Assembly: GCA_011523785.1 (NCBI GenBank)
Contig: WTFW01000163.1
Coordinates: 4,835-68,834 of the forward strand
Direction: 5' to 3'
Length of the DNA: 64,000 bases
From: Chloroflexota bacterium
GTDB lineage: Bacteria; Chloroflexota; UBA11872
Part shown: positions 14,366 to 59,872 of the stretch, piece after piece
How the letters are laid out: each line of letters starts with the position of its first letter
Numbering within the stretch: the stretch's first letter is position 1
Made by a program: the position numbers and the translations under genes
Notes under the pieces: model-generated
What the model was told of the DNA's origin: nothing
The model's input: only the letters and a program-made list of their open reading frames with translations
Database searches by the model: none

Positions 14366-14611
14366 AGGACAACCTCACGATGTGCGGGCGCGGGAAGGCG
14401 CCGACGTCGGCGGCGTGAACGTACGTTTTGTCGGGCCAGTGGGCAACTGGGCGTAGGCGCCCGTGTGTCTGGCGGACTCAGCGATGGGCAGTGGGCAGGG
14501 TATTGAAGGGCGGGTACGTGAGCTACGATCAACCAAACGGTCGGGTGGCAGATGCGACTGCCAACCGAACCGGGGGCGGTGAGATCGAAACTATTCCCAA
14601 GGAGGGACACC

Positions 14612-14788
14612 GTGAGCACCGCCTCATACGAGCAAAGACTCAGCGTCGTTGAAGCCGAGCGCAAGCACCTAGCAACGAAGGCCGACTTGCATGCCCTGGA
14701 GACCAGGCTCACCCGATGGATCGCCGGACTGGGCTTTGGCGTGGTTGGGACGCTGATTGCCGTCCTGGTGGACCGGTTTGCGGGGTAG
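14612..14788 (+). CDS. Small membrane-anchored coiled-coil protein, XhlA/DUF1640-like. Start is GTG 14612, preceded by an AAGGAGGG ribosome-binding site.
   Basis: VSTASYEQRLSVVEAERKHLATKADLHALETRLTRWIAGLGFGVVGTLIAVLV. This is a coiled-coil segment followed by one TM helix, reminiscent of the hemolysin XhlA family. The Shine-Dalgarno sequence is 5 nt upstream of the GTG. Confidence 0.55.
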   Translation: MSTASYEQRLSVVEAERKHLATKADLHALETRLTRWIAGLGFGVVGTLIAVLVDRFAG

Positions 14789-14903
14789 TTCCGGTACGTA
14801 GCAGCAGGTCCGGCCGCGTCGGGTTTCTACGCCGGTCGCGTCTGGTAGCTGACCATCGGACGCCAGCTTCCGTCACGAGCGAGGCGGCTCGACGGTTGAG
14901 AAG

Positions 14904-17678: not shown

Positions 17679-17851
17679 ACGAGCAGAACTCAGATTCTCG
17701 AGAGGAAGATTGTTCGGAAAACGCAGACGAGCGTCGCCGGGCTGAGCGAGTGGCCGCTGTCGCCCGCTTCCGGCGGCGCCGGGCGAAGTTCAGGCGAGTC
17801 AAGATGACCATTGACGAGATCCTGGCTGACATAAACGAAGGACGCCTCTAG
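17675..17851 (+). CDS. Candidate 58-aa Arg-rich small ORF, GTG-started and overlapping the previous stop (GTGA). Low confidence.
   Basis: Translation: VNEQNSDSREEDCSENADERRRAERVAAVARFRRRRAKFRRVKMTIDEILADINEGRL. It is translationally coupled to the upstream gene. Codon bias in the first third is atypical for this genome. Confidence 0.25.
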   Translation: MNEQNSDSREEDCSENADERRRAERVAAVARFRRRRAKFRRVKMTIDEILADINEGRL

Positions 17852-17861
17852 CAGCGGACGT

Positions 17862-23432: not shown

Positions 23433-24704
23433 TCAAGCGGCATTGCCCTCTTCGTCAACGCGGGTGATTTCCAGGCGGGTTATGCGAGTTTCCTTGACCG
23501 CGTGTACGCGCAGCACCGCACCATCCACGGTGACCGATTCGCCGACTGAAGGAACGCGACCAAAGGCGCTGAAGGCCAGACCGCCCACGGTGTCCACACC
23601 GTCAGCTGTGAGCATGAGGCCGAGTTCATTGTTCAGGTCCGTGATCGGCAGGCTCGCGTCCACGATCAGGCGTCCGGGTCCCAGCGACACGATCGGGACA
23701 TCGGGGACGTCGTATTCGTCCTCGATTTCGCCCACGATTTCTTCCAGCAAGTCCTCGATCGTGACCAGGCCGGCCGTGTCGCCGTATTCGTTGACCACGA
23801 CGGCCATGTGGAGATTGTCCGCCTGCATTTCGCGCAGCAGCCGGTCGACGTACTTGGAATCGGGCACGAACAGAGGCTCGCGCACCAGCGAGCGCAGGTC
23901 GGAGGTCCGGTTGGGCTCCAGCAGTTCGGCCAGTCCGTCGCGCACGTGGATGATCCCGATGACGTTGTCGAGGTCGCCCTCGAACACCGGCAAGCGGGAC
24001 AGCCCGTCGGCGTGGGCCGTGCGGAGCGCGGTTCGCAGCGGCGTGTCAACGCTGACGGCCACAATGTCGGGGCGCGGCGTCATGACCTGACGTACCACGC
24101 GGTCGCCCAGCTCGATGACGTTGGTGATCATCTCGATGTCGGTGGCGTCGATAGCTCCCTCACGCGCGCCTTCGACCGCCTCGATGACCGCGGCGTCCTG
24201 TGGGTCTGGTCCGCGCCAGGCTTCCTGCTCCCGGGGCGAGAGCAGACGCTCGAACGGGAGGCTGGCGGGCAGAAACAGGAGGTACTGACCGTAGATCAGC
24301 CAGGAGAAGCGGCGGGCGATTCGGAGGGGCCGTCGCTGGGCCAGGATGCGCGGGGTCACTCGCGCGCCCCCCGCATGCAGCACGCTCAACACGGCAAGCG
24401 CGAGGACGACGCCGGCGGGGCGCGCGCCCATCAACTCGCCCAGCCGCTCGCCCACGGTGGTGGCCGCGAGCGCCGCTGAGGCGAAGATCAGCACGGCCGC
24501 GCCAATCCGAGCGCTGGCCCAAAACCGAAATCGGTTATCGAGCAGAGTGCGGAGGCGACGGGCGGCGCGGGGTTCGGTGCTGTCCAGGGAATCAAGCGCG
24601 GTCTGTGAGAGCTCCAGCGCGGCGTTTTCGGCCAGCACCAGCAGTGTGCTGACCACAGTCAGCACGAGAATGAGGGCAAGTCCTACCCAACTAACCGGAT
24701 CCAA
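23433..24704 (-). CDS. CNNM/CorC/TlyC family protein. Paralog 3 of 3.
   Basis: DUF21 + CBS pair + CorC_HlyC (LVTIEDLLEEIVGEIEDEYD). Confidence 0.9.
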   Translation of the reverse strand: MDPVSWVGLALILVLTVVSTLLVLAENAALELSQTALDSLDSTEPRAARRLRTLLDNRFRFWASARIGAAVLIFASAALAATTVGERLGELMGARPAGVVLALAVLSVLHAGGARVTPRILAQRRPLRIARRFSWLIYGQYLLFLPASLPFERLLSPREQEAWRGPDPQDAAVIEAVEGAREGAIDATDIEMITNVIELGDRVVRQVMTPRPDIVAVSVDTPLRTALRTAHADGLSRLPVFEGDLDNVIGIIHVRDGLAELLEPNRTSDLRSLVREPLFVPDSKYVDRLLREMQADNLHMAVVVNEYGDTAGLVTIEDLLEEIVGEIEDEYDVPDVPIVSLGPGRLIVDASLPITDLNNELGLMLTADGVDTVGGLAFSAFGRVPSVGESVTVDGAVLRVHAVKETRITRLEITRVDEEGNAA

Positions 24705-24790
24705 AAAGGATCCACTCCCCTAGCGCGCGGCACAGACGGGTGCTCACGCCCAGATGCCGGTCCCCGCTGGCAGGCGGGGCCACATCGCGG

Positions 24791-25783
<993 letters not shown>

Positions 25784-25835
25784 CCTGGCTCGCCCATGAT
25801 ATCCGGCCCCGGCGAGGGCCCGCGGCCATTGGCGG

Positions 25836-26612
25836 CTAACGGTGCCGACGCTTGCGTTCCCGGCGCTCAAATGCGGCGTTGGCGGTGGCGAGGCGATCGA
25901 GGTCGTCGCAGCCAATCGTCTCGTCCAGGTCGGTGATCTGGTACCCGGCCACTCGCCGGCCGTCGTCAATGGCCAGGTCCACGAGTTGGGTGAGGTAGCG
26001 CTCGCCCGAGGTTCGGCTGGGTCGAACGCGCGACAGCGCGCGGCGCAGCCAGGCGGCGCGGAAGGCCGCCGGGCCGGCATTCACGGTGGTCAACGCCAGC
26101 TCGTCCGCTGAGGCGTCGGCCGTTTCCACAATGCCGCGTACAAGGCCGGTCTCAGCCAAGCGGACCCTGCCAAAAGAGCCCGGATCCGGCACGTCGGCCC
26201 AGGAAACGGCCGCGACGGCGTCCAGGCTTAGCAGGGCCTTGAGGACGCCGCGCACCGTCGCCGGGCGAACCAGGGGCGAATCGCCGTAAAGCGCGACCAC
26301 AACGTCAACGTCAGACGGCACGGCGCCCAGACCGGTTTCCACAGCGAAGGCGGTGCCGCGGCCGGTGGGCGGCTGGTCCACGGTGACCGTGCCGGCGGCC
26401 GCCGATCCCATGTCCATGCCGGGCCGGATGACGACCACCAGCGGATCCAGCCCGGCGGCTCGCCCGGTGTCGACCACGTGCGCCAGCATGGGGCGTCCCG
26501 CCACGCGGTGCATAACCTTTGGCACGTCCGAGGCGAAGCGCGTGCCCTGCCCGGCTGCCATCACGATGCCGGCAGCGCCGATCGATTTCGTCGCGGGGTC
26601 ACCGGCGTTCAT
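25836..26612 (-). CDS. Sugar-1-phosphate nucleotidyltransferase matching only the GlmU N-terminal uridyltransferase domain; no LbH acetyltransferase domain. The start is probably downstream of the track ATG, which lies 3 nt from the tRNA.
   Basis: IVMAAGQGTRF (compare GlmU LAAGKGTRM), YGDSPLV, and GlmU-like core. Stop at 25836 is only 53 nt from the prs start, leaving no room for a C-terminal LbH domain. Confidence 0.7.
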   Translation of the reverse strand: MNAGDPATKSIGAAGIVMAAGQGTRFASDVPKVMHRVAGRPMLAHVVDTGRAAGLDPLVVVIRPGMDMGSAAAGTVTVDQPPTGRGTAFAVETGLGAVPSDVDVVVALYGDSPLVRPATVRGVLKALLSLDAVAAVSWADVPDPGSFGRVRLAETGLVRGIVETADASADELALTTVNAGPAAFRAAWLRRALSRVRPSRTSGERYLTQLVDLAIDDGRRVAGYQITDLDETIGCDDLDRLATANAAFERRERKRRHR

Positions 26613-26615
26613 GGG

Positions 26616-26686
26616 CTGGGGAGGAAGGGTTCGAACCTTCGATCACGGATCCAAAATCCGTTGCCTTACCACTTGGCCACTCCCCA
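26616..26686 (-). tRNA. tRNA-Gln (UUG anticodon); CCA not cleanly encoded.
   Basis: Reverse complement reads TGGGGAGTGGCCAAGTGGTAAGGCAACGGATTTTGGATCCGTGATCGAAGGTTCGAACCCTTCCTCCCCAG. 7-bp acceptor stem, GGTTCGAACC T-loop, anticodon loop TTTTGGA. Near-identical in design to E. coli tRNA-Gln. Confidence 0.9.
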
Positions 26687-26718
26687 CAGGGAAAGCGTAG
26701 GCAGGCACTGTAGGCCGG

Positions 26719-27582
26719 TCAAAGTTGACTTCCGGCCTCGTCGGGCGGGGTCATGAAGCGCGTTGTCTTGGTCCACCAGCCGTGCGATTTCACGCGGGCT
26801 TCCGCGTTCCGCGCGGCCGCCCTGGTTGCGAAGAGTCCGAAGCAGGTTGGTCCGCTGCCGGCCAGGAGCGGCGGCTCCGCTCCGGCGGACTCCAGGGCGC
26901 GAATGACCACGGCCACTTCAGGCACCAGGCGGATTGCGGCGGGCTGCAGATCATTGGTCAGCAGCTGTGGCGTGAAATGGCCGCCTCGAATGGCGTCCAC
27001 CTGCTGCAAGGTGGCGGCCCCGCCTGACCACTCGGCCGGGCGCAACTCAGCGTAGGCGTCGCGGGCAGATATCTCGGCGTCGGGCCGGACAAGCACGACC
27101 CAATGCGGCGGCCCCGGTGGTATGGGCCGCAGGTCGTCGCCGCGGGCGAGCCCCAGCGCGGTTCCCGGACGAAGGAAGAACGGTACATCCGCGCCCAGCG
27201 CCCGCGCGGTCTCGGCTACGGCGGAAGCGTCCGAACTCCACAGCCGTTGAAGGCCCAGCAGAACGGCGGCCGCGTCGGTACTGCCGCCGGCGAGACCCGC
27301 CGCAACCGGGATGCGTTTGTCGACGCGAATGTGGACGCCCTGGCGCGTACCGCTGCGAGCTTGCAGTTCGCGGGCCGCGCGGAATGCCAGGTCGGCCGCG
27401 GGGTCAAGCCCGGGCACCGCGCTTTCGCCCTGGATCGTCGGCGCCGGGGTCAGGTGCACCGTGTCGCCGAATTCAAGCGCCTGGAAGATGGTGACGATCT
27501 CGTGATACCCGTCGGCACGCCGCCCGCGAACTTCAAGGCCCAGGTTGATCTTGGCCGGAGCGGCGATCGTGAGCCTGGCCAC
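26719..27582 (-). CDS. ispE: 4-diphosphocytidyl-2-C-methyl-D-erythritol kinase.
   Basis: APAKINLGLEV...RADGYHEI and GHMP-kinase motif PVAAGLAGGSTDAAAV. Confidence 0.9.
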   Translation of the reverse strand: MARLTIAAPAKINLGLEVRGRRADGYHEIVTIFQALEFGDTVHLTPAPTIQGESAVPGLDPAADLAFRAARELQARSGTRQGVHIRVDKRIPVAAGLAGGSTDAAAVLLGLQRLWSSDASAVAETARALGADVPFFLRPGTALGLARGDDLRPIPPGPPHWVVLVRPDAEISARDAYAELRPAEWSGGAATLQQVDAIRGGHFTPQLLTNDLQPAAIRLVPEVAVVIRALESAGAEPPLLAGSGPTCFGLFATRAAARNAEARVKSHGWWTKTTRFMTPPDEAGSQL

Positions 27583-27584
27583 GG

Positions 27585-28082
27585 TTAGCGAACAGGCTGG
27601 TCGTCGCGCGCGAGTCCGACGGCGGCCATGACGGACTCTTCCACGTGGCGCATTTTGCGCTGATCAGCGTTGTCGTCGTGACCGAAGCCGGCCAGATGCA
27701 GCAGGCCGTGCGTGAGGAGGTACCCGAACTCGCGTTCGATGCTGTGTCCGTAGGCATTGGCCTGCGAGCGGACACGTTCGAGCGAAATGGCCACGTCGCC
27801 CGGACACTCCCGGTCTCCGCTGGGGAAAGCAAGGACATCCGTTGCGCGGGGCTTACCGGCGAAGGCGCCGTTGAGCCGGGCAATCTCGGCATCGTCGGTC
27901 AGGCGCAGCCCCACCACGCCGGTCATGCCGGTGATGTCGTGCACGACAGCCGCGATCGGGTGAATCAGTCGGGCAAGCCCGGGTGGCAGGGGGGCACCCT
28001 CGCCGGCTTGAACCTGTAAGCGGGCCGACCCGTCCGCGCGGACTCGCGCCTTAGCCGCCGAGCAGTTTGCCAACGAGGGCAT
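27585..28082 (-). CDS. ybeY: rRNA maturation endoribonuclease YbeY. Start uncertain; the track start overlaps yqeY by 32 nt.
   Basis: TDVLAFP and Zn-binding HGLLHLAGFGHDD motif. Confidence 0.88.
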   Translation of the reverse strand: MPSLANCSAAKARVRADGSARLQVQAGEGAPLPPGLARLIHPIAAVVHDITGMTGVVGLRLTDDAEIARLNGAFAGKPRATDVLAFPSGDRECPGDVAISLERVRSQANAYGHSIEREFGYLLTHGLLHLAGFGHDDNADQRKMRHVEESVMAAVGLARDDQPVR

Positions 28083-28503
28083 TCACGGCGCGTCCGTCGA
28101 CCGTGCCCTGCTCACGCAGCCGCGCCATCAGCGGGCGCATGACCTTGCCCATGTCGCGGCGGCTGGTTGCGCCGACTTCGCTGATCACTTCGCGCGCGAT
28201 GGCTTCCATGGCGTCGCTGTCAAGCTCGTCGGGCTGATAGGCGCTGACGATGGCGCGCTCGGCGCGTTCAGCATCGGCTTGTGCAGGGCGGTCGCCCTTG
28301 ACATAAAGTTGAATGGCTTCGTCGCGGCGGCGGATGTCGCGTTGAACGACGCGTACCACCAGGGCGTCGTCCATTGACGCGCCGGATTCCTTGGCCTCGT
28401 ACTTGATTTGGGAGATGAGCGTGCGCAGGACACGGACACGATCGGCATCGCCGCCACGCTGCGCCGTTCGCAGATCCCCGGTGAGGCGGTCGATTAGCGC
28501 CAT
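28051..28503 (-). CDS. GatB/YqeY domain-containing protein.
   Basis: Typical YqeY sequence (LTGDLRTAQRGGD...LISQIKYEAKE) and the conserved adjacency to rpsU. Confidence 0.8.
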   Translation of the reverse strand: MALIDRLTGDLRTAQRGGDADRVRVLRTLISQIKYEAKESGASMDDALVVRVVQRDIRRRDEAIQLYVKGDRPAQADAERAERAIVSAYQPDELDSDAMEAIAREVISEVGATSRRDMGKVMRPLMARLREQGTVDGRAVNALVGKLLGG

Positions 28504-28524
28504 GCGGGGTTGGGACTGAGTTGG

Positions 28525-28740
28525 CTAGAGGGCGCGGGCCTCGGCTTCGGCCGCCTTCATGGCTGCCCGCCGGGCCTTGCGGCGCTTGGTGGCTTCCTTC
28601 TTCTTGCGCAGCACGCTGGGCTTGTCGTACGCCTTCCGGCGCCGGGTCTCCGTGATAATGCCCTCTTGCTGCACCTTTTTATTGAAACGGCGTAGGGCCG
28701 CATCAAAACTCTCGTTCGCGCCGATCGTGATATGAACCAA
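28525..28740 (-). CDS. rpsU: 30S ribosomal protein S21. The second in-frame TTG, at 28740, is the likelier start.
   Basis: VHITIGANESFDAALRRFNKKVQQEGIITETRRRKAYDKPSVLRKKK matches the S21 family core. Confidence 0.88.
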   Translation of the reverse strand: MVHITIGANESFDAALRRFNKKVQQEGIITETRRRKAYDKPSVLRKKKEATKRRKARRAAMKAAEAEARAL

Positions 28741-28762
28741 TGAACCCCCCAATTCGGACGGG

Positions 28763-28789
28763 CAACAAAAAACCCGCCGTGCGGGCGGG
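28763..28789 (-). terminator. Intrinsic-terminator-like hairpin (CCCGCC-N5-GGCGGG) followed by a U-tract on the minus strand, inside the rpsU 5' leader.
   Basis: Minus-strand RNA CCCGCCCGCACGGCGGGUUUUUUGUUG, lying about 25-50 nt upstream of the rpsU start. Confidence 0.5.
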
Positions 28790-28871
28790 TGCTGGCGGGT
28801 TGGTCAACCGGGCCGCGCGATTTCGGTCAGGCGCCTCCTGATGATGACCCGCCACCCCACGAGTTGCCGAG

Positions 28872-28901
28872 ATTATATGCGGCGCCGAAATACCAGGTCA
28901 A
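28872..28901 (-). promoter_or_regulatory. Near-consensus sigma70-type promoter (TTGACC-18 nt-TATAAT) reading toward rpsU.
   Basis: Minus-strand -35 TTGACC (28896-28901), 18-nt spacer, -10 TATAAT (28872-28877). Confidence 0.55.
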
Positions 28902-28922
28902 CCGCAGCCGGCCGCGCGGCAG

Positions 28923-29945
28923 GTGTCCTTCGTGACTGACCTCAACTGGCTGGCGCTGGCCCTCGGCGCGCCGCTGGCGCTGGTCTTAACCCTCGGCGTG
29001 CGAACGCTGGCCGCCCGCCTGGGCTGGATGGACCAACCCGGAGCGGCGCGAATCCACGTGGTGCCGGTGCCCCGGCTGGGCGGGGTGGCCATGTATGCGG
29101 CGTTCGTCATCACCGTGCTGGTGGTGGCCTGGCCGCTGGATCGGCAGACCGTGGGGTTGCTGCTGGGCGCCACGCTGCTGGTGGTCTTCATCGTGGTGGA
29201 CGACCTGCGCGGGATGCGTCCACGCAACAAATTCCTCGCGCAGCTCGCGGCCGCGGCGGTGCCGTTGCTGTTCGGCGTCCGCATCGATGTGGTCAGCAAC
29301 CCGTTCGAGGCCGGCGTGGTGCTGCTGCATGCGGCGATCGTGATTCCGTTCACGCTGTTCTGGATCACGGGAATGATGAACGCTATCAACTTCGTGGACG
29401 GACTCGATGGGCTGGCAGGTGGTGTCGTCACCATTGCCGCGATCGTACTGATAGCCCTGTCGCTGCGGCTGGGCCTGCCCGAGACCGCCACGCTGGCCCT
29501 GGTGCTGGTGGCCGTGGTTCTCGGATTCCTGCCGTTCAACGTCTACCGGTCGAGCATCATCATGGGCGACGCCGGCTCGCACTTCCTGGGCTTCGTGCTG
29601 GCGGTCATCGCCATCATGGGCCCGGCCAAGCTGGCTACCGCGATCCTGGTGCTGGGCGTGCCGATTCTGGATATCGCCTGGTCGATCGGGCGCCGTCTGG
29701 CCGGCGGCCGCCGCTTCGCCGACCGGGATGCCGAGCATCTGCATCACCGGCTCTGGGAGGCGGGCGTGCCGCAACCCGCCATCGCGCTGATGTATTACGC
29801 GCTGGCGGGCGTGCTGGGCGTTATTGCGCTGTTGGTCGAGCGGCTGGACAAGATCTTCGCGTTCCTGGGCCTGGCGGTGTTCCTGGGGGCGCTCCTGGCC
29901 GTTCTGAGTCGGGCGCCCAGGCGTCGGGGAGTCCCGCGGCGATAG
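28923..29945 (+). CDS. Glycosyltransferase family 4 (MraY/WecA-like) undecaprenyl-phosphate N-acetylhexosamine-1-phosphate transferase.
   Basis: NAINFVDGLDGLAGG motif, polytopic profile, DDLRG. Confidence 0.88.
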   Translation: MSFVTDLNWLALALGAPLALVLTLGVRTLAARLGWMDQPGAARIHVVPVPRLGGVAMYAAFVITVLVVAWPLDRQTVGLLLGATLLVVFIVVDDLRGMRPRNKFLAQLAAAAVPLLFGVRIDVVSNPFEAGVVLLHAAIVIPFTLFWITGMMNAINFVDGLDGLAGGVVTIAAIVLIALSLRLGLPETATLALVLVAVVLGFLPFNVYRSSIIMGDAGSHFLGFVLAVIAIMGPAKLATAILVLGVPILDIAWSIGRRLAGGRRFADRDAEHLHHRLWEAGVPQPAIALMYYALAGVLGVIALLVERLDKIFAFLGLAVFLGALLAVLSRAPRRRGVPRR

Positions 29946-30018
29946 GACGGTTCCCACCTGTAGGAGGTCGCACCAGCCGCCTCTATACTAGGGCCGTGAC
30001 CGACGGAGGCCCCAAACG

Positions 30019-30225
30019 TTGAATCCCGAAATCCATCCCGACTACATGGAGTGCCGCGTGACCTGCTCGTGCGGCAACATGTTCGAAACGCGCGCCACGA
30101 CATCCTCGATCCACGTGGATGTGTGCTCCAGTTGCCACCCGTTCTACACGGGTCAGCAGCGGCTGGTGGACTCGACCGGCCAGGTGGAGCGGTTCGAGCG
30201 GCGCCGGCGCAGGTCCCGCGCCTAA
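30019..30225 (+). CDS. rpmE: 50S ribosomal protein L31 (TTG start, GGAGG ribosome-binding site).
   Basis: MNPEIHPDYMECRVTCSCGNMFETRATTSSIHVDVCSSCHPFYTGQQ is the L31 zinc-ribbon form. Confidence 0.9.
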   Translation: MNPEIHPDYMECRVTCSCGNMFETRATTSSIHVDVCSSCHPFYTGQQRLVDSTGQVERFERRRRRSRA

Positions 30226-30282
30226 CCAGCCGCACCGGCGGCCAGACGCCGCTGCGGCCCAAGGCTAAGCGGCACGATCTAC

Positions 30283-31245
30283 ATGTCCGCGTCCTCTAAC
30301 GGCAGCAACGAACTTCGCATCAACTATGGCGGCCAGGCCGTACTTGAGGGCGTGATGATGCGTGGCCGCCGCGCCGCGGCGACGGCGGTGCGGCACCCGG
30401 CCGGGCATATCGTGCTCAAGACGGAGGAGCTGGATCCCAACCGGCTTTCGCAGCGGCTGCGCCGCGTGCCGTTCGTGCGCGGAGTCGTCGCGCTCTGGGA
30501 AATGCTGGCCGTTGGACTACGCGCGCTGAACTTCTCAGCCAACGTGCAGCTTGCCGAGGAGGAAGACCAGGACGAAGGCCCCGGCGGCGCGGCCGGCGGC
30601 ATGATGACGGGCAGCCTGGTGATCGGCCTGGTGGTGGGTATTGCGCTGTTCTTCGTGCTGCCGCTCGTGTTGACGTCATTTACCGACGGTCTGGTTGAAT
30701 CCGACTTCGTCAGCAACGTGATCGAAGGCGCCGTGCGGATGGCGGTCTTCGTGACCTATATCGCGCTCATCGGCCTGATGCCCGACATCCGGCGCGTGTG
30801 GATGTATCACGGCGCCGAGCACAAGACGATCAACACGCTGGAGGCCGGCGAGCAACTGACCGTGCCCAACGTGCGTCGCTTTGGGCTGGCCCACCCGCGC
30901 TGTGGCACGTCGTTCATCGTGACGCTGGTGGCGATCTCGATCATCGTGTTTGCGTTGCTGGGGCGCCCGCCGATGGCGATTCGCGTGGTGTCTCGCATCG
31001 TCTTGCTGCCGCTGATCGCCGGCGTGGGCTACGAGTACATTATGCTGACGGCCCGCTACCAGGGGCATGCGCTGGCTCGCTGGGCCTCGAAGCCCGGCAT
31101 GTGGTTCCAGAAGATGACCACGCGCGAGCCGGACGACGAGCAGGTCGAAGTGGCGGTCGCGGCGATGGATCACGTGCTGGCGCGCGAGGACGCCCTGGCG
31201 GAATTGCGGCCGGCCGCCGTGAACGCGGTCGTCGTCGATGATTGA
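30283..31245 (+). CDS. DUF1385 (YqhQ-like) membrane protein.
   Basis: [16 protein letters not shown] and CGTSF blocks. Conserved position between rpmE and prfA. Confidence 0.75.
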
Positions 31246-32317
31246 CCGGCTGGCGGAGGCCCGACGGCGCTACGACGAGCTGACGGCGGAGCTTGCCGGT
31301 GCGGGCGGCGCCCTGGACTCGCGGCGCCTGGCGAGCCTTGGCCGCGAAATGTCGCAGTTGGAGACCACGGCCCGTCTGCATGACGAGCTGTCGGACGCTC
31401 GGGAACGCCTGACCGAGGCGCGCGACCTGCTGGACTCGTCCGATCCTGAACTGGTGGAACTGGCGCGCGAGGAACTGGACGAGGTGCAGGCCGAGATCGC
31501 TGAGATCCAGGCCCGCGCCATCGATGTGCTGGTCAGCGACGACCCCGACGACGCGCGAAACGCCATTGTGGAAGTCCGTGCCGGGACAGGCGGAGAAGAA
31601 GCGGCCCTGTTCGCCGGCGATCTGCTCCGGATGTACACCCGCTATGCCGAGCGCCTGCGTCTGAAGGCGGAGCCCATGACCGTCAACGGCACGGACCGCG
31701 GCGGGGTCAAGGAAGGCATCCTGCGCATCGTTGGCGCCCGGGCGTTCGGTGCCTTCCGATTCGAGAGCGGCGTGCACCGCGTGCAACGCGTGCCGGTCAC
31801 CGAGGCCGGCGGGCGCATTCACACGTCGGCGGCCAGCGTGGCTGTGCTGCCGGAAGCCGAAGAGATCGATATTGAGATTCCCGAGTCCGACGTGCGGGTT
31901 GATGTCTTCCGCTCGAGCGGCCACGGCGGCCAGAGCGTCAACACCACGGACTCGGCGGTACGGGTTACGCACCTGCCCACCAACACCGTGGTCAGCATCC
32001 AGGATGAGAAATCGCAATTGCAGAATCGCGTGAAGGCCATGCAGGTCTTGCGGGCCCGCTTGCTGGAACAGGAACGCGAGCGCCAGGCGGCGGAGCGCGG
32101 GCAGGCTCGGCGCGACCAGATCGGCAGCGGGGATCGCAGCGAAAAGATCCGTACGTATAACTTCCCGCAGGACCGGATTACCGATCATCGCGTGGGTCTG
32201 ACGGTCCACAATTTGCCCGCGATCCTTGACGGAAACCTGGACCGGGTGATCGATTCGCTGCGGCAGGCCGAGCGAGACCGCGAACTGGCGGGCTTTGCCG
32301 ACGTCGGCGCCGCCTGA
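31238..32317 (+). CDS. prfA: Peptide chain release factor 1.
   Basis: RF1 PVT tripeptide (RVPVTE) and GGQ motif ([11 protein letters not shown]). Confidence 0.93.
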
Positions 32318-33155
32318 CACGCTCGCCGAGCTGCGCCGCGCGGTCATTGCGCGCCTGCGCACGGCTGGCGTCGATACGCCGGTCCTGGACGCAAACATGC
32401 TGATCGGGCATGTACTGGGGATCGCGCCCGAGCGGGTGGCGATGGGGCTCGGAGCCGAGTTGGGCGACGACGACGTAGGACGAATTGAAACCGCATCGAG
32501 GCGACGCGAGCGTCGCGAGCCGATGGCCTACATCACCGGTTTCAAGGCCTTCCGCCATCTCGACATCGCGGTGACGCGGGACGTGCTGGTCCCCCGGCCC
32601 GAGAGCGAGTTGCTGGTTGACGTTGGGCTGGAGCTGTGGGACGCGAACCCTGGCTCAACCGCGGTAGACATTGGGACTGGCAGCGGCGTGATTGCCCTGG
32701 CGCTCGCCAGCGAACGCCCGGGCCGTCGCGTGATCGCGACAGACTGTTCCCACGCGGCCCTGCAGGTGGCTGCGGCCAATGCACGGCGACTGCAGCTGGC
32801 GGATCGGGTGAAAAGTCGCTTCGCGGCTGGAGCGACCGGGGTGGACCTGGGTGAATCGGTGGTCGTGGCAAACCTGCCGTATATCCCATCGGCGGCGCTG
32901 GATGCGCTCGAGCCGGAAGTCGCGCGCTGGGAGCCGAGACTCGCTCTCGACGGCGGACCCGACGGCCTGGCCGTAATTCGTGAAGTCGTGGGACAGGTTG
33001 GTCGGGGACGGGCACGGGCCGCCGCGTTCGAGATTGGAGCCGGGCAGACCGAGTCGGTTGCGGCGCTGCTGCGCCAGGCAGGGTTTGCGCAGACGGCCGT
33101 GCATCGCGACCTCGCCGGGCATCCACGCGTCGTAACGGGCTCCCGCGTAAGCTGA
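32295..33155 (+). CDS. prmC: Release-factor glutamine N5-methyltransferase PrmC/HemK.
   Basis: [11 protein letters not shown] motif I and NPPY-type VVANLPYI. Confidence 0.9.
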
Positions 33156-33191
33156 GCCTAGGCGGCGGCTTGCGGCCGTCCGCTCGGGAGG

Positions 33192-33848
33192 ATGCCGCGA
33201 CGCGTGTCACCTGCGACTGATTCGCCGCGCAGCGGCCTGCTGTTTCTCGTGACCGCTCCCTCGGGCGCCGGCAAGGACTCGGTGATCGGCGTGCTGAGAG
33301 ACCGTGGCGCTGACGTGGGCTTTGCGATTACCGCCCTGACGCGCGAGCCTCGCGAGGGCGAGCGGGACGGCATCGACCACTTCTTTATCAGCGACGCGGA
33401 GTTCGAGCGGCGGCTGAGCGACGGTTGGTTTCTGGAGACGGCCAGTGTCTACGGGCGGCGCTACGGCACGCCCATCCACCAGGTGCGCAAGCCACTGCTG
33501 GAGGGACGGGACGTGATGCTGCGCCTGGATGTCCAGGGCGCCCGCGAACTCAAGCGGCGCTACCCCGGCGCGATCGCGATATTCGTTGAGCCGCCCTCGC
33601 CGGAGGAGGCCGAGCGACGCATGCGGTCCCGTGCCACCGAGTCGCCACAGGAAATCGAACGCCGGATTGACGCCATGCGCGCATACGAATTGTCGTTCGC
33701 CGCGGAGGCCGACTTTCGAGTCGTGAACGCGACTGGCGACCTCGCGCGGGCGGCCGACCGCGTATGGGACATCGTCACCTCGGTCCGCCGGACCCCCGAG
33801 CGAATGGCGGTGGCGGCTGAGCTGACCCCGGTTCGACCCCTGGACTAA
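33192..33848 (+). CDS. gmk: Guanylate kinase.
   Basis: P-loop APSGAGKDS. TREPREGERDGIDHFF and the downstream family block. Confidence 0.85.
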   Translation: MPRRVSPATDSPRSGLLFLVTAPSGAGKDSVIGVLRDRGADVGFAITALTREPREGERDGIDHFFISDAEFERRLSDGWFLETASVYGRRYGTPIHQVRKPLLEGRDVMLRLDVQGARELKRRYPGAIAIFVEPPSPEEAERRMRSRATESPQEIERRIDAMRAYELSFAAEADFRVVNATGDLARAADRVWDIVTSVRRTPERMAVAAELTPVRPLD

Positions 33849-33853
33849 CGGCC

Positions 33854-36292
33854 GTGAACGCGACGGCGCCCGCGTATGCCGAGGTCATCGTGGCGGCCGG
33901 TGACGTGCGCGGCGACCAGACGTTTCACTACAGCGTGCCGGATGACTTGCGGGGTGCCGTGCGGCCCGGCCAGCTGGTGATGGCGCCGTTCGGGGCGCGG
34001 CAACTGCCCGGGGTGGTGACGGCGCTGGCCGACGTTTCGCCGGTAGACGCGACGCGAGATCTCCTGCAGCTGGTCTGGGAGCCACCCTTGATCGGACCTC
34101 GGCAGCTTGCGCTGGCACGCTGGGTGGCCGCTCGCTATGGAGCCCCCTTGCGGTCGGCCCTGGACCTGGTCGCGCCGCCACGCCTGGCGCACCACTTGCA
34201 CGCCGTGTATGCGGCGGCAGGAGCGAGTGAGCCGCGTCAGGGGATCTCGGGCGGCGACCGGCGCGTGCTCGAACTCCTTCGCGAACGCGGCGGGCTAACC
34301 GAGGCCGCGCTGCGGACCGAGCTTGGCAAAACTGCCGCAACGCGTGGTGTGGCGCGGCTGGTTCGCCACGGCCTGGTGACGCGGCATGTCAGTCTTCGCT
34401 TCCCCGAGCCGCCCGCGGAACGTCTCGTCGAGTCGCTACCGCCGCCGGATGGCCAGTCGCCGGCCGAGTTGTTGCAGCGTGCGCCCAAGCAACGTGCCCT
34501 CTGGGAGCACCTGCGAAGTCTTGACGGGCCGATGCCCGTGGCCCAGGTGCTCAGGCAGGTTTCGGCGTCACGGCCATCGCTGCAGGGGCTGGTGGATCGT
34601 GGCCTGGCGCGCATCGAGAGCCGCTGGTCGGCCTCCTACATCGTCGCCGGATTGCGGGATGGGGTTGCCTGCGCCCAGGCAGGCGATGCCTGGGCCTGGC
34701 CTGAACTGGCGGCGGCCCTCGCACGCCGGCCGCCGGATCCGGTGGTTGTGCAGGGCCGCGAGTCCGATCGCTGGCCAATGTACGCCAAGGCCATCGAGCG
34801 GGTAGCGACCGAGCGGCGCCAGGCTCTGGTGATCGCTCCCGAAGCCGCGACCGCGGCCGAATTGGCCGAATGGCTGGCCGCGCGGGTAAGCGTGACGCCG
34901 GCAGACGCCACCCGGGCTCGCACGCCGGCGCAGCGCGTGGCGTTGTGGCGCGCGCTGCGCGCCGGCGAAATCGATCTGTTGGTGGGAACGCGTGACGCGA
35001 CCTTCGCGCCGCTGACGCGCCTGGGTCTCGTGATCGTGGAACGCGAGGAAGATTCGGGCCACAAGAGCCGCGTTGCGCCCAGGTACCACGTGCCGGTCTG
35101 CGCCGCCAGGCTGGCGGAACTCTTTGGTTGCCCCCTTCTGTTGGGCACGGAAACCCCGCGCGTCGCCACCTTTCATGCAGCCGAGACCGGCCGCGCGCAG
35201 CTGGTGATCGCCGGATCCCCGCTGCTCTTGCGCCAGCCGGAGGATGAAACGGGCGGTGGCCGGTTCGTGCGGCGGTCGTCGCGCGATGCGGAAATCGTGG
35301 ACACGCGCCGGGCGCCAACCGTGGGCCGCTACGGAGCGATCTCGCGAGCGCTCTACGAGGCGTTGCGCGAGACCCTGTCTGAACAGGGCCGTGCCGTGTT
35401 GTACGTCAACCGGCGCGGCCTGGCCGCCCTGACCATCTGCCGCACCTGTGCCCACGTCTTCGAGTGCCCGCGCTGCAGCACCGGGCTGGTCCAGCATCGC
35501 CAGACACGGCAGAACGTCTGCCACATCTGCAACTGGCGGGGACCGGTGCCCCGCTGGTGCCCGGTCTGCGAGGGCGACCGCCTGCGCCTCTGGGGCTACG
35601 GCAGTGAGGCCGTCGCCGAGGCGGTCGCGCACCTGCTGCCGCGATCGAAAGTGGCCCGCATAGACAGCGACCGGCCGGCACACGAAATGGACGCCGACGT
35701 GACGGCCTTCGAGCGAAGTGAAGTTCAGGTCCTGGTTGGCACGCAGCGTTTGCTGGGATTCGGCAATCGGCTGCAGTCCGACCTGCTGGGCATCGTACAG
35801 GCCGACATCGGGCTACAGTTTCCCGACTTTCTGGCCCCGGAGCGCGTGTTTCTGACGCTCTCGCGTCTGCGGCTGGTGGCCACCGGCAGCCAGGCGAGGG
35901 CGCGTACAGTAGTGCAAACGATCATGCCCAATCATCACGTCGTGCAGGCATTGCAAACGGCTAGCTACCTGCGTTTCTTCGAACCCGAGATGGAGCAGCG
36001 CCGCAGCGAAGGCCTGCCGCCCTTGCGCCCCCTGATCAAGGCATCGTTCGGCCATGCCGACGAGTCACGAGCCGAAGCCGAGGCGCGGCGCGCGCGGCTG
36101 GAGCTCAACACCGTGCTGACCGCCGGTCCGCCGCTGGACCTGGACGTGCTTGGGCCGGCCCCCGCCTTCATTTACCGGCAGCGCGGCCAGTATCAGTGGC
36201 AGTTGCTGTTACAGGGCCAGGACGCCGAAAAAGCGCTCCCGTTGTTTCACGGCGGCTGGACGCTCGACGCCGATCCTCTCGATTTGACGTAA
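33854..36292 (+). CDS. priA: Primosomal protein N' (PriA) with degenerate Walker A and B motifs.
   Basis: 3'BD N-terminus, and the PriA zinc-binding Cys cluster CRTCAHVFECPRCSTGL...CHICNW...CPVCEG. The expected GxxGSGKT position reads QGRESDRWPMYAKAIE and the DExH position reads EREEDSGHK. Confidence 0.85.
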   Translation: MNATAPAYAEVIVAAGDVRGDQTFHYSVPDDLRGAVRPGQLVMAPFGARQLPGVVTALADVSPVDATRDLLQLVWEPPLIGPRQLALARWVAARYGAPLRSALDLVAPPRLAHHLHAVYAAAGASEPRQGISGGDRRVLELLRERGGLTEAALRTELGKTAATRGVARLVRHGLVTRHVSLRFPEPPAERLVESLPPPDGQSPAELLQRAPKQRALWEHLRSLDGPMPVAQVLRQVSASRPSLQGLVDRGLARIESRWSASYIVAGLRDGVACAQAGDAWAWPELAAALARRPPDPVVVQGRESDRWPMYAKAIERVATERRQALVIAPEAATAAELAEWLAARVSVTPADATRARTPAQRVALWRALRAGEIDLLVGTRDATFAPLTRLGLVIVEREEDSGHKSRVAPRYHVPVCAARLAELFGCPLLLGTETPRVATFHAAETGRAQLVIAGSPLLLRQPEDETGGGRFVRRSSRDAEIVDTRRAPTVGRYGAISRALYEALRETLSEQGRAVLYVNRRGLAALTICRTCAHVFECPRCSTGLVQHRQTRQNVCHICNWRGPVPRWCPVCEGDRLRLWGYGSEAVAEAVAHLLPRSKVARIDSDRPAHEMDADVTAFERSEVQVLVGTQRLLGFGNRLQSDLLGIVQADIGLQFPDFLAPERVFLTLSRLRLVATGSQARARTVVQTIMPNHHVVQALQTASYLRFFEPEMEQRRSEGLPPLRPLIKASFGHADESRAEAEARRARLELNTVLTAGPPLDLDVLGPAPAFIYRQRGQYQWQLLLQGQDAEKALPLFHGGWTLDADPLDLT

Positions 36293-45308: not shown

Positions 45309-45336
45309 TGCGCGGGGTGTCTTGGAAGGGCAGGCC

Positions 45337-45828
45337 GTGCGCGCGCTGTTTCCCGCGACCTTCGACCCGGTTACCAACGGTCACATGGACATCCTGTGCC
45401 GGACGGCTAGTGTCTGCGACAGCGTGGTGGTTGGCGTATTCGAGAACGAACGCGGCGACACGCTGTTCACGGCGGACGAGCGTTTGGCGCTGCTTGAAAC
45501 GGCCGTGGCTCACCTGCCGAACGTCGAGGCGCGCATCTACTCGGGGTTGACCGTAGACTTTGCGCGGCAGATTGAGGCTAGCGTGCTGGTTCGAGGCCTG
45601 CGGGCCGTGTCAGACTTCGAGTATGAGTTCGCGCTCTCGGCCATGAATCGCCGCTTGCACCCGGATATCGACACGATGTTCTTTCTCTCCGCGCCCGAGC
45701 ACGCGTTCGTCAGTTCATCGCTGATTCGTGAAATCGGGGCACTGGGCCGTTCGGTCGAGCCGTTCGTCCCGCCAAACGTCGCGGCCGCGGTCGGCGCCAA
45801 GTTCGCCGTACACCCTGAGCGGAGGTAG
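45337..45828 (+). CDS. coaD: Phosphopantetheine adenylyltransferase (GTG start at 45337).
   Basis: FPATFDPVTNGHMDI (T/HxGH motif), SSSLIRE. Confidence 0.9.
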   Translation: MRALFPATFDPVTNGHMDILCRTASVCDSVVVGVFENERGDTLFTADERLALLETAVAHLPNVEARIYSGLTVDFARQIEASVLVRGLRAVSDFEYEFALSAMNRRLHPDIDTMFFLSAPEHAFVSSSLIREIGALGRSVEPFVPPNVAAAVGAKFAVHPERR

Positions 45829-59728: not shown

Positions 59729-59872
59729 CCCACACGCCTACGGGTTCTAGGTCCCGGACTGCCGGATTAGGCCTCCCGGATCACGCCAGACACCAAGACC
59801 TCCGCTCAATGGCCGCTCGGCAGGACCCCCGACGATCTCAGCCGTGCGACAGCTTGGGGCGAGGCGGGACGG

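Follow-up and report, generated by a model that had tools for sequence, protein, structure and literature searches.

The gene for ribosomal protein S21 (rpsU) in an uncultured lineage of Chloroflexota is preceded by an RNA leader that we read, as the best explanation of its sequence, as a lineage-specific leader that would attenuate transcription of the S21 operon and might respond to S21 or to ribosome supply. The leader was studied in a stretch of 64 kilobases (67.5% G+C), referred to throughout as the window, and lies on its minus strand ahead of the four genes rpsU-yqeY-ybeY-ispE. It comprises a sigma-70-type promoter, an RNA of about 100 nucleotides (nt), a hairpin followed by a run of U residues, and a further ∼30 nt before the rpsU start codon. 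We judge it about evenly balanced whether this hairpin ends transcription and in that way restricts or regulates operon expression. A preliminary description of the locus had proposed an attenuator; the layout it gave is real, whereas the pairing that would form the switch is no better than that of shuffled sequences.

The promoter stands where it was first placed. Its TTGACC and TATAAT hexamers, 18 nt apart, match the sigma-70 consensus at 11 of 12 positions, and no other site on either strand of the window does so, with 0.07 matches of this quality expected per window by chance (dinucleotide shuffles). A consensus scan of positions 24000-34000 likewise returned it as the sole promoter-like site. 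Transcription is predicted to start near position 28865, ∼125 nt ahead of the start codon and not ∼100 nt as originally suggested, although an RNA terminated at the hairpin would indeed be ∼100 nt long. No second rpsU promoter was found by the consensus scan, either in the 31 nt between the terminator and the start codon or elsewhere in 24000-34000. The neighbouring glycosyltransferase gene is transcribed away from rpsU, the two being separated by a divergent promoter region of 182 nt. Since the upstream gene is divergent and no second promoter was found, transcription of rpsU-yqeY-ybeY-ispE must read through the terminator; by the same divergent intergenic position, the terminator cannot serve an upstream gene.

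The hairpin has a 7-base-pair (bp) stem with six G-C pairs, a 5-nt loop and six U in the tail UUUUUUGUUG directly after the stem, and in its stem and U tract it has the canonical features of an intrinsic terminator. It sits 31 nt before the rpsU TTG, in agreement with the ∼30 nt first reported, and is also called by the consensus scan. The folding calculation suggested in the preliminary description shows the hairpin to be favoured, at -12.8 kcal/mol by itself, and it is present in the minimum-free-energy fold of the transcript. In a strict scan for terminators (stem of at least 6 pairs with at least 5 G-C, loop of 3-8, at least 5 T in the next 7) it was the only match in the window. Looser criteria give ∼58 chance matches in a window of this G+C content, and because of these many chance matches the sequence statistics can only suggest a terminator; the case for it rests on conservation. 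Read on the plus strand, the hairpin has no T run after it. Neither the terminator pattern nor the AGGAGG hairpin described below has a further copy in the window that would be a sign of a regulon or a repeat, each being unique there.

Relatives of the locus were collected by genome and metagenome scans and then by a protein search with 12 contig look-ups. The nearest genomes are metagenome-assembled genomes (MAGs) whose S21 is 97-99% identical to that of the window, and the metagenome scan gave one further close relative. The comparison covers ∼40 related Chloroflexota loci (S21 79-100% identical) with the same gene order, in which rpmE and the glycosyltransferase gene lie on one side and rpsU-yqeY-ybeY-ispE on the other. 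By reading the sequences, we assigned the leaders to groups A (the window and L002), A' (L001, L003 and L161), B (L006-8, L173 and L180-183), C (L175-177), D (L178-179), E (L163-172), F (L081 and L162, of low G+C), G (L187), H (L188-190) and I (L191). Four lineages (L004, L005, L174 and L184-186) have a different leader.

Conservation in relatives, a second check proposed earlier, is seen for both the promoter and the hairpin. The pattern TTGACC/TTGGCC-18-TAnAnT is retained in 25 of the 28 family loci scanned, at 121-148 nt from the start codon (75 nt in L004); in L005 the promoter deviates (TTGACT with a 19-nt spacer), and in L184, which stands for L184-186, the -35 pattern of the scan was unmatched. 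The hairpin keeps a fixed distance from rpsU in most relatives, its stem ending 29-36 nt ahead of the start codon wherever it was detected. Aligning 18 distinct sequences from groups A-E, H and I shows pairing in 96.8% of the cells of the stem columns and a core, CCGCC...GGCGG, that hardly varies; apart from C-to-U changes facing G, the stem differs only in its closing pair (AU, GU, GC, CG). Four-fold degenerate sites of rpsU are just 38-62% identical between the leader groups, synonymous positions being saturated. By this comparison selection clearly acts on both the sequence and the position of the hairpin, and arms that each pair with more than one partner would be expected to keep their sequences, as both do here, and not to covary freely. 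The attenuator reading is further supported by the U-rich tail, which abuts the stem in the independent lineages A, B, C, D and H and is strong in all five (UUUUUUGUU, CUUUUAUU, UUUUUUUG, GUUUUUUG and AUUUUAU). The tail is weaker in groups F and G, and group F has another stem, CCUCG/CGAGG, at the equivalent position.

An upstream domain occupies the leader between the promoter and the terminator (Table 1). The sequence ACCCGCC is present there in two copies, the first forming the 3' strand of a helix designated P1 and the second the 5' arm of the terminator. CAGGAGG, which occurs once in the window, is invariant in the alignment of groups A and B while its flanks diverge, and these two groups also share a GUCR...YGAC helix and the motif GACCRAC; the latter is also found in groups D, E and I. 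The GGAGG of group B has a possible partner in a stretch of pyrimidines 5 nt further downstream (UUUCC, UCUUC or UCUCC), in which the only variation is between C and U. Groups C-I have lineage-specific hairpins, with only weaker purine-rich stretches where AGGAGG would lie, and their upstream domains are not alignable with confidence. MAFFT and RNAalifold gave lineage-specific folds with no structure common to all lineages, and no widely conserved aptamer was seen. The hairpin (C/U)AGG-AGGNR-CCU(G/U) resembles the top of 16S helix 45, which we take to be UAGG-GGAA-CCUG; this is a short, post-hoc match and is not used here.

The region matches no family in Rfam 15 (best E at least 2, far under gathering scores), and neither do the leaders of 15 relatives at permissive thresholds; in a scan of the whole window only a tRNA was above threshold. 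The RNA element before the S21 gene is thus unannotated, as first described. A leader peptide was considered and rejected: in those sequences of groups A and B that were read, AGGAGG has no ATG, GTG or TTG behind it at a distance suited to initiation, and the open frames of the leader differ between the window and L001 mostly by non-synonymous changes (by eye).

Table 1. Features of the rpsU leader and neighbouring genes, in window coordinates (minus-strand features are given from 5' to 3').
Feature	Position	Strand	Remarks
Sigma-70-type promoter	28901-28872	minus	-35 TTGACC 28901-28896; 18-nt spacer; -10 TATAAT 28877-28872
5' G-rich strand GUGGGGUGGCGGGU	28860-28847	minus	GGCGGGU 28853-28847 is the 5' strand of helix P1
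GUGGG	28860-28856	minus	candidate antiterminator; can extend P1 onto the terminator 5' arm
Hairpin UCAGG-AGGCG-CCUGA	28841-28827	minus	bears Shine-Dalgarno-like AGGAGG 28839-28834
UUGACCAACCCGCC	28807-28794	minus	conserved GACCRAC and first ACCCGCC (28800-28794), 3' strand of helix P1
Intrinsic-terminator-like element	28790-28763	minus	stem ACCCGCC 28790-28784 / GGCGGGU 28778-28772; loop CGCAC 28783-28779; tail to 28763
Spacer	28762-28741	minus	CCCGUCC 28762-28756 and ribosome-binding site GGGGGG 28750-28745
rpsU (ribosomal protein S21)	28740-28525	minus	first gene of rpsU-yqeY-ybeY-ispE (down to 26719); Pfam Ribosomal_S21
yqeY	28503-28051	minus	Pfam YqeY
ybeY	28082-27585	minus	Pfam YbeY; 16S rRNA 3'-end maturation nuclease
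GHMP kinase, probably IspE	27582-26719	minus	Pfam GHMP kinase
Family-4 glycosyltransferase	28923-29945	plus	transcribed away from rpsU; L31 gene next

The preliminary description also had an upstream segment pairing with the 5' arm of the terminator. We find that this segment, GGUGGCGGGU, pairs best with the first ACCCGCC, and that only the 5'-most GUGGG reaches the arm. In the minimum-free-energy fold of the window leader, GGCGGGU pairs with the first ACCCGCC to form P1 and the second copy is in the terminator. A competing fold within ∼1 kcal/mol extends P1 by 5 bp through GUGGG:CCCGC and reduces the terminator to a 4-bp remnant; L002, the closest relative, has this pairing too. The equilibrium probability of the full terminator is 0.38 for the window, 0.54 for L002, 0.71 for L001 and ∼0.75 for group B. 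The extension of P1 is formable before the 3' arm of the terminator is transcribed, and because it can precede synthesis of that arm, a default of read-through that is switched to termination by a factor is plausible for group A. A specific terminator/antiterminator switch is weakly supported by this modelling.

The attenuation reading would proceed as follows. Some transcripts would end near 28766 to give a leader RNA of ∼100 nt, and the fraction reading through would set the expression of the operon. In the window lineage, GUGGGGUGGCGGGU would pair first with ACCCGCC (P1), which would then zip 5 bp onto the terminator 5' arm before the 3' arm is made, producing an antiterminated state by default. 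Termination would follow once a factor that binds or remodels P1 or the AGGAGG hairpin, in the upstream domain, released the arm. We guess that such a factor is tied to ribosome supply, being either free S21, in the manner of classical ribosomal-protein leaders, or 30S subunits engaging AGGAGG. In RNA that has been read through, the C-rich arm may pair with the G-run ribosome-binding site, and translation may be modulated too. The terminated leader RNA could still accumulate.

Several observations weigh against this interpretation. Termination and read-through are both deduced from sequence only, and canonical terminators are otherwise absent from the window by the strict scan. The hairpin is absent in four lineages, and in groups E and I it is kept with a degenerate U tract (AUCUUGCUUG and GUCUUGCUG, respectively). 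The leader as a whole diverges like synonymous sites (72-90% versus 76-84% at four-fold sites, closest pairs). The covariation analysis suggested earlier gives only a single compensatory event for each candidate helix upstream: C-G changes to U-A in GYGC/GCRC (A versus A'), and A-U to G-C in the GUCR/YGAC helix (A versus B). Folding z scores relative to shuffles are inconsistent: group B lies at +0.6 to +1.0, the window at -0.6 to -0.8 and L001 at -3.1. Pairing the terminator 5' arm with upstream sequence gains -6.7 kcal/mol, compared to -4.5 ± 2.7 for shuffled upstream sequence, and in groups B-F it is no better than in shuffles; the antiterminator is unrecognisable in groups B-I. As to the effector, S21 assembles late, no free RNA-binding motif is known for it, and Escherichia coli gives no evidence of S21 feedback (PMC13374519).

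The folds predicted for RNA that reads through the terminator are relevant to whether control might be exerted on translation. The ribosome-binding site of the window is GGGGGG, 4 nt before the TTG, with AGGAGG ∼95 nt upstream. In the full-leader fold of group A, the terminator 5' arm pairs with this G-run and the 3' arm with CCCGUCC, and in group B a long helix (CCCC...GGCGU...CCGA / UUGG...ACGCC...GGAGG) encloses the terminator. The pairs of these read-through folds are invariant, hence they yield no covariation signal. The group B start carries GAGGAGGAG, and the leader terminator is still present. As modelled, the alternative read-through fold would sequester the ribosome-binding site, which leaves room for a translational component.

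The hairpin and U tract could accordingly be a translational or mRNA-stability element: the C-rich arm would pair by turns with the 3' arm and with the ribosome-binding site, the U-rich stretch (20-30 nt ahead of the start) would be a landing or standby site for the ribosome (S1), and control would fall on initiation of the full-length mRNA. We think this rather unlikely, although several observations favour it: the fixed distance of 29-36 nt to the start codon, consensus folds in which the ribosome-binding site pairs with the C-rich arm (A) or with an upstream CCCC (B), the retention of the hairpin in lineages E and I despite a poor U tract, the weak TTG start throughout, and a distant Chloroflexota rpsU leader (see below) that lacks a U tract and has a 5' end complementary to the Shine-Dalgarno region. 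However, six to seven U abutting a G+C-rich 7-bp stem, in several independent lineages and in a genome of 67% G+C, is the signature of an intrinsic terminator, and the sequestering pairs, being invariant, show no covariation. Translational control is compatible with attenuation, and both could operate. Within the attenuation reading itself, the leader might be autogenous, with free S21 binding an rRNA mimic (the AGGAGG hairpin, for example) and favouring the terminator. The leader immediately precedes rpsU, with which the operon begins, the conserved AGGAGG is not followed by an open reading frame (ORF), and the group B residues facing GGAGG vary between C and U only and so remain compatible with pairing; the GGAGG:YYUYY duplex in that group resembles a Shine-Dalgarno:anti-Shine-Dalgarno helix, which we take as a lead only. 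From other bacteria it is known that bS21 represses through the rpsU2-yqeY leader of Francisella (PMC13374519) and that S21 adjoins the 3' tail of 16S rRNA (PMC7797042, PMC10931766). That free S21 is the effector is nonetheless doubtful, as AGGAGG is confined to groups A and B with weaker purine-rich stretches elsewhere, no RNA motif bound by bS21 is known, and S21 joins the assembling subunit late (PMC13374519).

A more speculative version, which we regard as a long shot, is that the leader is a sensor of ribosome status that needs no leader peptide, its AGGAGG being read by the anti-Shine-Dalgarno tail of the 30S subunit or by free S21. Accessibility of the tail would depend on S21, or S21 would recognise a duplex like that of the Shine-Dalgarno and anti-Shine-Dalgarno sequences; engagement of AGGAGG would be co-transcriptional and would decide between the P1-extension antiterminator and the terminator. 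If true, transcription of the S21 and YbeY genes would be coupled to the availability of competent small subunits. A metabolite-sensing riboswitch or a leader-peptide attenuator would share the architecture of a structured domain followed by a terminator, and is the least probable of all: the lack of any Rfam match in the window and 15 relatives and the divergence of the upstream domain between lineages whose S21 is 80-90% identical argue against the former, and the start codons and substitutions considered above against the latter. The preliminary description offered a separate small RNA (sRNA) of ∼100 nt as the other reading of the locus. The promoter and terminator are indeed ∼100 nt apart, and leader-derived small RNAs arising by premature termination are known in other bacteria and provide a precedent. 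A stand-alone sRNA gene beside rpsU, acting in trans, is nevertheless highly improbable: no separate rpsU promoter was found in the 31 nt after the terminator or elsewhere in the region scanned, the element is always immediately 5' of rpsU in the relatives, the body of the RNA is poorly conserved, the element is single-copy in the window, and complementarity to a target was neither looked for nor seen.

Many ribosomal-protein leaders repress via conditional terminators (PMC7247131). Our literature search found no rpsU attenuator or S21 leader motif, a 2020 catalogue of 20 new ribosomal-protein leaders makes no mention of S21, and the Rfam families searched include no leader for it. The leader described here is like those of the Bacillus L10, L20 and S10 type in having a structured 5' untranslated region (UTR) with a terminator just before the first ribosomal-protein gene, in the predicted alternative pairings of the terminator 5' arm, and in its narrow phylogenetic range and fast sequence turnover. 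It differs from them in that S21 is not a primary rRNA-binding protein and in that the antiterminator is no better than shuffles. In Francisella tularensis, the 5' UTR of rpsU2-yqeY, which is repressed by bS21 paralogs, suffices for bS21-dependent repression of transcript abundance; this effect is exerted at least in part through the stability of the mRNA, neither of two predicted stem-loops is needed, and a leader terminator was not reported (PMC13374519). The Francisella operon likewise has rpsU and then yqeY behind a 5' UTR, although similarity in sequence was neither expected nor seen.

In Flavobacteria, rpsU is autoregulated by means of an extended Shine-Dalgarno sequence that is read by ribosomes lacking bS21 (PMC9976891, PMC13000453). 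The parallels are a strong Shine-Dalgarno-like sequence on the rpsU mRNA and the link of S21 to the 16S anti-Shine-Dalgarno tail. In the Flavobacteria (Bacteroidia), however, the strong sequence is the gene's own ribosome-binding site and the regulation is translational, whereas here AGGAGG is ∼95 nt further upstream and followed by no start codon, rpsU itself has just a weak G-run as its site, and a terminator stands between the two. Autoregulation of the flavobacterial type was therefore rejected for the window, where no extended Shine-Dalgarno sequence is found at the rpsU start. Like rpsU-dnaG-rpoD, the macromolecular synthesis operon of E. coli, the operon has rpsU as the promoter-proximal gene of a mixed operon with an intrinsic terminator limiting downstream genes, although in E. 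coli the terminator follows rpsU and here it precedes it, and the downstream genes here are yqeY, ybeY and ispE (PMC10931766).

With its terminator, the rpsU leader would be the first S21 leader of the attenuator type, in a phylum with almost no characterised RNA regulators. Control of S21 elsewhere takes the form of the unusual ribosome-based mechanism of Flavobacteria and an unexplained 5' UTR effect in Francisella (PMC10931766, PMC9976891, PMC13374519). The product of ybeY, in the same operon, matures the 3' end of 16S rRNA, where S21 sits, and if an effector exists the leader could reveal feedback on late assembly of the small subunit. If the terminator is constitutive, this is an ordinary attenuated leader.

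The four genes of the operon are closely spaced or overlapping and are followed by a tRNA-Gln gene. S21 would thus be co-transcribed with YqeY, YbeY and an IspE-like kinase, an order kept in all relatives. The rpsU start is the TTG at 28740 (MVHITIG...) and not the in-frame TTG upstream at 28752. As called, the S21 ORF runs into the leader, giving 75 amino acids from the TTG at 28752 (window 28741-28752), and the called 'S21' proteins of relatives, at 92-112 amino acids, read through the terminator region (P0001, P0012, P0013, P0017). These extra N-terminal residues lack conservation and almost certainly reflect faulty annotation. A TTG start of rpsU is common to the window (28738-28740), all close relatives and the Limnocylindria-type loci described below (TTGGTTCA..., TTGGCAGA...), and weak initiation appears, from these sequences, to be a conserved property of rpsU across the phylum.

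More distant Chloroflexota (Limnocylindria-type MAGs; L026-L080 and L088-L160) have a different conserved rpsU leader, which begins right after a TAGACT or TACACT -10 sequence; examples are L028:2439-2503, L044:2439-2503 and L032:2405-2503. It consists of CUCCGC(A/G)GGCUU, a GCGCG...CGCGC hairpin with an insert of 10-60 nt, and GA(G/A)UUCA..AGC(A/G)GAGAGGAGGCGAGACGUUUG. Two pairs covary among 27 distinct sequences (GC:8/CG:8 and UA:17/CG:6). CUCCGC at the 5' end has complementarity with GCGGAG and with the Shine-Dalgarno region, and no U tract follows. By sequence, this looks like an undescribed rpsU 5' UTR motif.

Elsewhere in the window, scans of convergent gene ends near 17679-17861, 45309-45714 and 59729-59872 found no hairpin with a U tract. 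Canonical intrinsic terminators seem to be rare in this genome, and the one in the rpsU leader would therefore stand out. A very stable hairpin of -20 kcal/mol, CGGUUCGGUUGGCAG-UCGCAU-CUGCCACCCGACCG followed by UUUGGUUG, is present on the minus strand at 14538-14572, within the intergenic region 14366-14903 between xylose-isomerase-like and methyltransferase genes. It adjoins a possible ORF of 58 amino acids on the plus strand, with a GTG near 14606 preceded by AAGGAGGG.

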